From assembly GCF_055900595.2 (NCBI RefSeq), contig NZ_CM148325.1: a stretch of DNA of 64,000 bases. One strand, given 5' to 3'. The position numbers and the translations under genes were made by a program. This document shows positions 28,089 through 29,492 of the stretch, one piece after another. The stretch's first letter is position 1; the number at the start of each line of letters is the position of its first letter. Under the pieces are notes generated by a model. That model had not been told where the DNA came from. It saw only the letters and a program-made list of their open reading frames with translations, and did not search any database.

Positions 28089-29492
28089 ATGAATACAGTA
28101 CGCAGCGAAAAAGATTCGATGGGGGCGATTGATGTCCCGGCAGATAAGCTGTGGGGCGCACAAACTCAACGCTCGCTGGAGCATTTCCGCATTTCGACGG
28201 AGAAAATGCCCACCTCACTGATTCATGCGCTGGCGCTAACCAAGCGCGCAGCGGCAAAAGTTAATGAAGATTTAGGCTTGTTGTCTGAAGAGAAAGCGAG
28301 CGCCATTCGTCAGGCGGCGGATGAAGTATTGGCAGGACAGCATGACGATGAATTCCCGCTGGCAATCTGGCAGACCGGCTCCGGCACGCAAAGTAATATG
28401 AACATGAATGAAGTGCTGGCTAATCGGGCCAGTGAATTACTTGGCGGCGTGCGCGGGATGGAGCGTAAAGTTCACCCTAACGACGACGTGAACAAAAGCC
28501 AAAGTTCCAATGATGTCTTTCCGACGGCGATGCACGTTGCGGCGCTGCTGGCGCTGCGCAAGCAACTTATTCCGCAGCTTAAAACCCTGACACAGACGCT
28601 GAATGAGAAATCGCACGCATTTGCCGATATCGTCAAAATTGGTCGTACCCACTTGCAGGATGCCACGCCGCTAACACTGGGGCAGGAGATTTCCGGCTGG
28701 GTAGCGATGCTGGAGCATAATCTCAAACATATCGAATACAGCCTGCCGCATGTAGCGGAACTGGCTATGGGCGGTACAGCTGTGGGTACTGGACTAAATA
28801 CCCATCCGGAGTATGCGCGTCGCGTGGCAGATGAACTGGCAGTCATTACCTGCGCACCGTTTGTTACCGCGCCGAACAAATTTGAAGCGCTGGCGACCTG
28901 TGATGCCCTGGTTCAGGCGCACGGCGCGTTGAAAGGGTTGGCTGCGTCACTGATGAAAATTGCCAATGATGTCCGCTGGCTGGCCTCAGGCCCGCGCTGC
29001 GGAATTGGTGAAATCTCAATCCCGGAAAATGAGCCGGGCAGCTCAATCATGCCGGGGAAAGTGAACCCAACCCAGTGTGAGGCATTAACCATGCTCTGCT
29101 GTCAGGTGATGGGGAACGACGTGGCGATCAACATGGGGGGCGCTTCCGGTAACTTTGAACTGAACGTCTTCCGTCCGATGGTGATCCACAATTTCCTGCA
29201 ATCGGTGCGCTTGCTGGCAGATGGCATGGAAAGTTTCAACAAACACTGCGCAGTGGGCATTGAACCGAATCGTGAGCGAATCAATCAATTACTCAATGAA
29301 TCGCTGATGCTGGTGACTGTGCTCAACACTCACATTGGTTATGACAAAGCCGCCGAGATCGCCAAAAAAGCGCATAAAGAAGGGCTGACCTTAAAAGCTG
29401 CGGCCCTTGCGCTGGGTTATCTTAGCGAAGCCGAGTTTGACAGCTGGGTACGGCCAGAACAGATGGTCGGCAGTATGAAAGCAGGGCGTTAA
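28089..29492 (+). CDS. fumC: Class II fumarate hydratase
   Basis: 467-aa ORF with fumarase/aspartase signature region ([13 protein letters not shown]). Confidence 0.97.

Follow-up and report, generated by a model that had tools for sequence, protein, structure and literature searches.

A conserved fumC-sense RNA hairpin embedded in the coding sequence of the convergent gene tus

Convergent genes with overlapping ends have been catalogued in Escherichia coli, where 58 such overlaps were described and the modal overlap of 4 base pairs (bp) was traced to CTAA, TTAA, CTAG and TTAG tetramers (Lillo and Krakauer, 2007, PMC2174442). In these pairs, any terminator of a gene has to lie within the coding sequence (CDS) of its partner (PMC2174442). 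Overlap has also been reported between the transcripts themselves and, according to Conway et al. (2014, PMC4161252), 276 of the 370 convergent operons of E. coli (75%) overlap at their 3' ends, by 286 nucleotides (nt) on average. A list of 165 convergent excludons of strain MG1655, based on transcripts that overlap in 50% or more of 58 RNA sequencing (RNA-seq) sets, includes the pair tus-fumC (ExcludonFinder, PMC12288877 Table 1), together with folM-ydgC, tqsA-pntB, speG-ynfC and clcB-bidA from the same region (PMC12288877). For Rho-dependent transcripts, a stable stem-loop has been described which protects the trimmed 3' end, with a Rho-loading (rut) region just downstream (Dar and Sorek, 2018, PMC6061677). 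The present analysis concerns the fumC/tus junction in a stretch of 64,000 nt from contig NZ_CM148325.1 (RefSeq assembly GCF_055900595.2), hereafter the window, in which a conserved stem-loop of fumC-sense RNA was found inside tus, a few nucleotides beyond the fused stop codons. The features of the junction are as follows.

28089..29492, plus strand: fumC CDS, encoding the class II fumarase (from the open reading frame list; identical annotation in NZ_CP098223.1 and K-12)
29489..30418, minus strand: tus CDS, encoding the terminus-site binding protein of 309 amino acids (aa) (start ATG at 30418-30416; annotated in NZ_CP098223.1 and K-12)
29489..29492, no strand assigned: TTAA, shared palindromic tetramer forming the 4-nt convergent overlap of both stops (same in K-12; tetramer class of PMC2174442)
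29503..29546, plus strand: conserved fumC-sense RNA stem-loop inside tus codons 292-305 (5' arm 29503-29515, 18-nt loop 29516-29533, 3' arm 29534-29546)

The fumC product ends in ...KAGR, with the stop TAA at 29490-29492, and the Tus protein reads MARYDL...LHLYVAD, with its stop TAA being the complement of 29489-29491. Both stops are contained in a single tetramer of the CTAA/TTAA/CTAG/TTAG set, bases 29490-29491 are common to the two codons and no intergenic base separates the genes (letters 29480-29500, AGCAGGGCGTTAATCTGCAAC; 29484-29497, GGGCGTTAATCTGC). Both are genuine convergent protein-coding genes: RefSeq genomes annotate them, conservation extends over 79 species, and the relatives of Tus carry the Pfam domain PF05472. 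A first-pass annotation of this DNA had stated that the two stops share bases without intergenic space, that no room is left for a terminator between the genes and that each transcript enters the partner gene. The first statement is confirmed as a 4-nt CDS overlap (TTAA, 29489-29492) and the second is correct, the number of intergenic bases being zero. The third agrees with the K-12 excludon listing and with a published Rho region antisense to tus; it is right but trivial, the overlap was already documented, and a 3' end ahead of the partner's CDS is physically impossible here for any transcript that keeps its own stop codon. The claim that a terminator is missing was nevertheless incomplete: it holds for the intergenic part, yet the hairpin at 29503-29546, a C-rich stretch and a Rho zone point to a termination or 3'-end module embedded in tus.

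The stem of this hairpin is 13 bp long and GC-rich, with the core CAGGUGCAGCCG / CGGCUGCGCCUG, and its arms coincide with tus codons Q292-A-Q-P295 and R302-L-H-L305. Its minimum free energy is -24.9 kcal/mol (z -4.85), and none of 200 shuffled sequences gave an equally good fold. An outer stem (29495-29502 / 29558-29565) was also predicted in the window; it is 44% paired across species and was excluded from the conserved element. The hairpin is directly followed by a short tail.

29547..29555, plus strand: weak U-containing tail GGTTTATAA, from tus codons P291-K290-Y289 (not called a terminator by a consensus scan)

The sequence after the stem can also be read as UGGUUUAUAA or GGUUUAUAA, and its longest U run is three. 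An intrinsic terminator would be expected to combine a GC-rich stem, a loop of about 3-8 nt and a U run, but the loop here is 18 nt long and three U at most are consecutive. Similarly, the flanks of the hairpin (CAACATA upstream, TGGTTTATAA downstream) lack the A-tract and U-tract of a bidirectional intrinsic terminator. A consensus promoter and terminator scan of positions 27900-30700 gave no terminator at the junction, its two minus-strand hits lying near the end of fumA only, and an Rfam search in E-value mode (27800-30700) returned over the hairpin only a chance match to a trypanosomatid small nucleolar RNA (E 0.65). No description of the hairpin was found in the searchable literature on fumC, tus and terminators. 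With no earlier description found there or in Rfam, the hairpin inside tus is a new result.

The conservation of the element was assessed in 80 Enterobacteriaceae species loci, collected through Tus. In 79 of them fumC converges on tus, and the hairpin is present in all 79; it is also kept in the remaining species, Klebsiella indica. Across the species set, the 78 nt after the fumC stop have a mean fold z of -2.9, versus -0.35 for those after the tus stop. In the alignment (A1), 88% of the cells of the inner helix are paired, six pairs show changes on both sides, and none of 500 shuffles matched the observed pairing percentage or covariation score; controls slid along the alignment pair at 19-46%, far below the inner helix. 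When the same 17-residue peptide was recoded synonymously, using each species' own codon usage, the mean energy was -15.5 kcal/mol, versus -25.6 kcal/mol observed, and the fumC-sense hairpin ranked among the most stable 5% of the recodings in 71 of the 80 sequences. Within tus, synonymous identity reaches 0.80 in the arm codons against a gene mean of 0.47, with values of 0.17-0.55 for the loop codons; among diverged pairs, the top five-codon windows of the whole gene are 291-295, 292-296 and 302-306, which correspond to both arms (permutation p < 1e-5), and no other Pro, Leu or His codon of tus is as conserved as P295, L303 and H304. Furthermore, position 1 of codon 295 pairs with position 3 of Arg302, and all four Watson-Crick combinations occur (CCG/CGG, TCG/CGA, GCG/CGC and ACG/CGT): residue 295 varies between P, S, A and T while its pairing with the synonymous Arg302 position persists. 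The hairpin is under selection beyond the Tus protein sequence.

An inverted repeat can fold in the RNA of either strand, and the fumC-sense fold is favoured over the tus-sense fold. It is the more stable of the two in 73 of the 80 sequences, and the variable cells of the alignment, in the fumC-sense reading, hold 37 G.U wobbles versus 13 A.C mismatches. In addition, one central invariant pair, U.G on the fumC-sense RNA, corresponds to an A.C mismatch on the tus mRNA.

Loci in which a spacer separates tus from its neighbour serve as natural experiments. A homologous-protein search gave close relatives of Tus only, and more distant Tus genes were obtained from a representative search and contig look-ups. 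In locus L087 (Tus 47% identical), fumC converges on tus behind a 74-nt spacer (3928-4001) that holds two canonical hairpins, one of which is AAGCCATCT...AGATGGCTT followed by UUUUUUU. In L091 (Tus 44%), the spacer of about 46 nt before fumC holds AACGGAGCC...GGCTCCGTTT (3353-3400), and in L090 (Tus 37%) a different convergent gene lies behind a 185-nt spacer with terminators. The embedded hairpin is absent from all three loci, though the PRLHLY-type C-terminus of Tus is kept. Elements of the form AAAAAAA-hairpin-TTTTTTT occur in L085, where the element (3937-3965) directly follows the tus stop, and in L087; some of these A-tract/hairpin/U-tract elements of distant Tus loci could terminate transcription on both strands. 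L085, too, is without the embedded hairpin. The contigs of L085 and L088/L089 end too near tus to show the neighbouring gene. Within the Enterobacteriaceae set, Pluralibacter gergoviae, which has a 35-nt spacer, carries a strong new hairpin there, and its embedded hairpin does not surpass the recoding null.

The overlap itself is ordinary, statistically not unusual and already catalogued. The window is Escherichia chromosomal DNA. The 2.7 kb around the junction match 5,424 of 5,426 complete E. coli genomes, with 100% identity to NZ_CP098223.1, whose annotation shows an identical 4-nt overlap of fumC and tus, and a 161-nt junction probe is found at an identity of at least 95% in 5,423 of the 5,426. 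The geometry in K-12 MG1655 is identical (tus 1684259..1685188, plus strand; fumC 1685185..1686588, minus strand). Among the 79 species, the gap between fumC and tus is -4 in 43, 0 in 17, -11 in 15, -14 in one, +10 in two and +35 in one; an apparent gap of +55 in L067 was rejected as an alignment artefact arising from a truncated fumC match. The tail-to-tail disposition of fumC and tus is a long-standing Enterobacteriaceae arrangement whose exact junction drifts, yet apart from the +35 case no gap wider than 10 nt has opened. The window holds about ten convergent junctions, two of them with an exact TTAA overlap. The second is ydgC (32648..32983, plus strand) / folM (32980..33702, minus strand), 3.5 kb from fumC/tus, with the tetramer at 32980-32983. 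No hairpin was found on either side of this junction (fold z +0.4 and +0.65), which indicates that the hairpin is not generic to TTAA overlaps. A K-12 Rho region antisense to folM has been reported at 1681110 (minus strand), about 585 nt beyond the ydgC stop (Adams et al., PMC7815308). The speG/ynfC junction (about 59267-59270) has a 2-nt gap, and five more convergent junctions, whose collinearity was checked, have gaps of 24-47 nt. The segment 28000-30700 is 95-99% identical to most E. coli genomes and at least 99% identical to 12 genomes, and the Tus protein of the window is 98% identical to that of 'Escherichia sp. E1V33', 97% to that of E. whittamii and 95% to that of the E. coli species representative. 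On sequence comparison, these identities suggest either a divergent lineage or a recombined segment.

Several features around the junction bear on where the two transcripts end.

26300..27946, plus strand: gene for a class I fumarase (K-12 fumA), immediately preceding fumC in the same orientation
29558..29661, plus strand: stretch rich in C and poor in G that follows the hairpin, a candidate site for Rho to load (rut) on fumC transcripts (C 33-36%, G 19%, C/G 1.7-1.9)
29782, plus strand: literature coordinate of Rho termination on the fumC strand (minus-strand position 1684895 of K-12), projected via the collinear equal-length tus genes
29411..29488, minus strand: the 78 nt that a transcript of tus enters past its stop, rich in C, poor in G and without structure; a candidate rut region of the tus RNA (C 37%, G 19%)
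30429..30451, minus strand: TerB replication-terminus site in the tus promoter, ATAAAGTATGTTGTAACTAAAGT, ending 10 nt before the ATG (placed as in K-12)

Transcription of fumA is likely a further source of transcripts arriving at the junction. Downstream of the hairpin, positions 29571-29648 are at the 97.7th percentile of all 78-nt windows in the 64 kb for C-richness over G. In K-12, a bicyclomycin-sensitive Rho region annotated as 'antisense tus' has been reported at 1684895 (minus strand), about 290 nt past the fumC stop (score 5.62, p 5.8e-7; Adams et al., 2021, PMC7815308 Supplementary file 2). Reads in the 800 nt upstream and downstream of this coordinate were 83/16 without bicyclomycin and 36/39 with it, so that the ratio rises from 0.19 to 1.08 (PMC7815308). 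This rise indicates that fumC-strand transcripts enter tus and are stopped there mainly by Rho. The supplements of the SMRT-Cappable-seq study hold no 3' end at the hairpin. On the opposite strand, the tables of Adams et al. list neither a 3' end nor a Rho region for tus transcripts inside fumC. The 78 nt following the tus stop (29411-29488) are at the 98.5th percentile of the window, with 81% of the 79 species exceeding +0.10 and a fold z of +0.24, a composition consistent with Rho loading on tus transcripts. No element matching the hairpin was found for these transcripts in the 3' end of fumC, where the fold z is about 0 and no peak of synonymous constraint appears.

The succession of a stop codon, a stem-loop without a good U-tract, a C-rich stretch and a bicyclomycin-sensitive zone at about +290 has the same order as the anatomy described by Dar and Sorek, and the locus is best placed in that class. 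Their type of 3' end requires a stable stem-loop soon after the CDS without a U-rich tract, which is what is found at 29503-29546. It is rather probable that the fumC 3'-end module within tus is a Rho-dependent terminator with a protective stem-loop. Fusion of the stops left no spacer for a terminator, and the module would have come to lie within the final ~100 codons of tus, but on the other strand. A polymerase moving past the fumC stop would first make the 13-bp GC-rich stem-loop; Rho would then load on the C-rich, G-poor stretch (about 29558-29661) and halt the polymerase a few hundred nucleotides on, near 29782, ahead of TerB and the tus promoter (30429-30451). The most likely role of the hairpin would be that of an exonuclease-resistant 3' end of the mature fumC mRNA. 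Transcripts of tus would enter unstructured, C-rich antisense fumC sequence and would probably be stopped by Rho too, in their case without a protective hairpin of their own. The overlap, the hairpin with its conservation and covariation, and the base composition were observed here, and the Rho-dependent region and the transcript overlap are known from K-12 publications; we infer that Rho loads on the C-rich stretch, that the RNA is trimmed as far as the hairpin, and how tus transcripts end.

A number of observations weigh against a protected Rho-dependent 3' end of fumC. The C-richness after the hairpin is only moderately conserved, with 35% of species exceeding +0.10, and that after the tus stop may simply result from conservation of the FumC C-terminus. 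The published Rho coordinate derives from 800-nt windows and is thus coarse, and bicyclomycin also unleashes other antisense transcription. The curated Term-seq 3' ends of Adams et al. (Supplementary file 1) include none at the base of the hairpin (K-12 16848xx-16852xx) or elsewhere within about 250 nt of the junction, for which the expression of fumC or the curation thresholds may be the cause. As the species are related, the shuffle controls overstate significance. The inverted repeat also folds on the tus mRNA (-19.9 kcal/mol, z -4.2), and this tus-sense fold beats the recoding null in 57 of the 80 sequences. Finally, Klebsiella indica keeps the hairpin though another convergent gene replaces fumC behind a 68-nt spacer. 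In this species (L072, 3931-4002), the only one of the 80 without fumC beside tus, the neighbour is a 461-aa gene and the hairpin carries a compensated A-U pair. The locus of this exception may have been rearranged recently, or else the hairpin may be directed against antisense transcripts whatever gene they come from.

Other explanations have to be weighed against these data. The hairpin might be a weak intrinsic (Rho-independent) terminator of fumC, with Rho as no more than a backstop further downstream. Its GC-rich 13-bp stem is indeed followed by TGGTTTAT, with 5 T in 8 in the window, the loop can pair internally in several species, shrinking to about 8-9 nt, and for E. coli genes that overlap convergently, intrinsic terminators are at times predicted inside the partner (Lillo and Krakauer, PMC2174442). 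However, the loop spans 16-18 nt, the tail opens with GG and its U run stops at three, the K-12 count is 4 T in 8, and the consensus scan made no call. The table of Adams et al. has no Term-seq peak at the hairpin, and bicyclomycin raises the downstream/upstream ratio near +290 to about 1 (36/39), which leaves little room for Rho-independent termination and argues against an efficient intrinsic terminator; this explanation is unlikely. Action of the inverted repeat on both strands or on the tus mRNA, either as a bidirectional terminator of the collision type or as a structure governing tus translation or stability, accounts for the stability of the tus-sense hairpin relative to shuffles (z -4.2) and synonymous recodings (57 of 80) and for its retention in Klebsiella indica without fumC. 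A stem-loop in the nascent RNA is also reported, in a preprint (bioRxiv 10.1101/2022.10.23.513370), to be needed to position head-on polymerase collisions at convergent pairs. Yet the stem has an invariant central A.C mismatch on the tus mRNA, the variable wobbles favour the fumC sense by 37 to 13, the A or U tracts of canonical bidirectional terminators do not flank it, and loci with a spacer behind tus lack the hairpin, though the function of Tus is the same. Moreover, on the tus strand the hairpin finishes 12 nt short of the stop, so that a tus mRNA ending there would be without a stop codon, and collisions should be rare given the weak transcription of tus. A role on both strands or on the tus mRNA is very unlikely.

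The first-pass annotation had raised the possibility of antisense interference between the two genes. In a regulatory excludon of this kind, antisense read-in would lower expression of the partner through polymerase collision or RNase III cleavage of the duplex. The pair is among the 165 MG1655 convergent excludons (PMC12288877), and the reach of fumC-strand RNA into tus is no less than about 290 nt by the time Rho acts. Every tus mRNA would have its final ~19 codons complementary to the mature fumC 3' untranslated region, and the RNAs of the two genes carry complementary hairpins with complementary 18-nt loops. Nevertheless, the listing records overlap only, without an expression effect, in a genome where 75% of convergent operons overlap (PMC4161252). 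No dataset or paper linking fumC induction to tus levels was found in the literature, tus is already tightly autoregulated through TerB (PMC8707476), and the conserved hairpin and the Rho zone have the appearance of means to restrict the overlap, not to make use of it. No evidence was found for regulation of either gene by the overlap, nothing here favours antisense interference, and a regulatory excludon appears quite improbable. It could finally be supposed that the exact 4-nt overlap is itself selected, for genome compaction or for coupling of the genes, since a TTAA or TTAG junction is retained in 43 of the 79 species and in essentially all E. coli. The junction varies freely among genera (-14, -11, -4, 0, +10, +35) whereas the hairpin, at a distance of a few nucleotides, is fixed, which indicates that the absence of a spacer is tolerated rather than the tetramer selected; besides, tetramers of this class are easily produced by stop-codon shifts (PMC2174442). 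Selection on the tetramer is extremely improbable.

The reading of the module as a Rho-dependent terminator with a protective stem-loop bears on the replication fork trap. TerB, whose position and role as the operator of Tus autorepression have been described (PMC8707476), has its G6 end facing rstB and its permissive face towards tus and fumC. With this orientation, polymerases coming from fumC would meet the permissive face. The TerB of the window has one extra A compared with K-12 (ATAAAGTATG... versus AATAAGTATG...), which alters positions 2-3 of the 23-mer and leaves G6 and the core through T23 identical. Transcription from the permissive side has been reported to dislodge Tus and to relieve fork arrest (PMC2095818, citing Mohanty et al., 1996 and 1998). 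Transcription of fumA and fumC heads at TerB, which doubles as tus operator and fork barrier and lies about 940 nt downstream of the fumC stop, and halting fumAC transcripts within tus may protect the barrier and the operator. That the embedded hairpin and the Rho module form an insulator for the fork trap is a long shot. If this were true and termination leaky, strong induction of fumC, through SoxRS or under iron limitation, or a defect in Rho would displace Tus from TerB. Removal of Tus would then de-repress tus, open the barrier transiently and couple signals from the tricarboxylic acid (TCA) cycle or from oxidative stress to the terminus, and the effect on tus would be opposite in sign to simple antisense repression. 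The question is thus raised whether the TerB barrier and the tus operator are shielded from fumAC readthrough.

The overlap matters little in itself, being a textbook type of junction. The embedded hairpin, on the other hand, provides a testable case of one gene's 3'-end signal kept inside the CDS of its neighbour. It constrains Tus codons 292-295 and 302-305, with residue 295 covarying with a synonymous site of Arg302, and deletion or codon optimisation of tus would alter the 3' ends of fumC mRNA. These observations bear on the reading of synonymous conservation in tus and on the annotation of Rho-dependent terminators in the absence of intergenic space.

Elsewhere in the window, a few other features were noted. 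Positions 35387-36714 correspond to an insertion of about 1.3 kb relative to NZ_CP098223.1, between ydgI and ydgH, in which the reading frame 35399..36607 (minus strand) encodes a 402-aa transposase (MCELDILHDSLYQF...), presumably of the IS10 type. At about 49528-49534, NZ_CP098223.1 has an IS200/IS605 tnpA insertion beside a truncated clcB, and the window is without this insertion. A 96-nt tandem repeat (5765-6285; 5.4 copies, 89% matches) lies in frame, with units of 32 codons, inside rsxC.

Compared with the systems described so far, the fumC/tus locus shares traits with four of them. With the convergent excludons it shares an explicit listing (PMC12288877; PMC4161252), but mutually exclusive expression is the defining consequence of excludons, and the listing of tus-fumC records transcript overlap only. 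With canonical intergenic terminators, intrinsic or bidirectional, it shares the place of the hairpin relative to the fumC stop, as in L087 and L091, whose spacers of 46-74 nt hold such hairpins; in contrast, fumC/tus has no spacer, a loop of 16-18 nt, a poor U-tract, no A-tract on the other side and Rho-dependent termination. With the class of Dar and Sorek (PMC6061677), the common traits are a stem-loop without a good U-tract after the CDS, C-rich sequence next to it in the window, and readthrough sensitive to bicyclomycin (PMC7815308). Here, however, the steady-state 3' end of fumC at the hairpin base is a prediction, and the module lies wholly inside the CDS of a convergent gene, kept through its synonymous sites and one variable residue. 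As for the [CT]TA[AG] overlaps of Lillo and Krakauer (2007, PMC2174442), fumC/tus has the same convergent stops sharing TTAA, the same modal length and the same need for the partner CDS to host any terminator. The overlap itself is identical; what is added is that a hosted terminator-like element has been found, and that it is under selection at the synonymous sites of its host.

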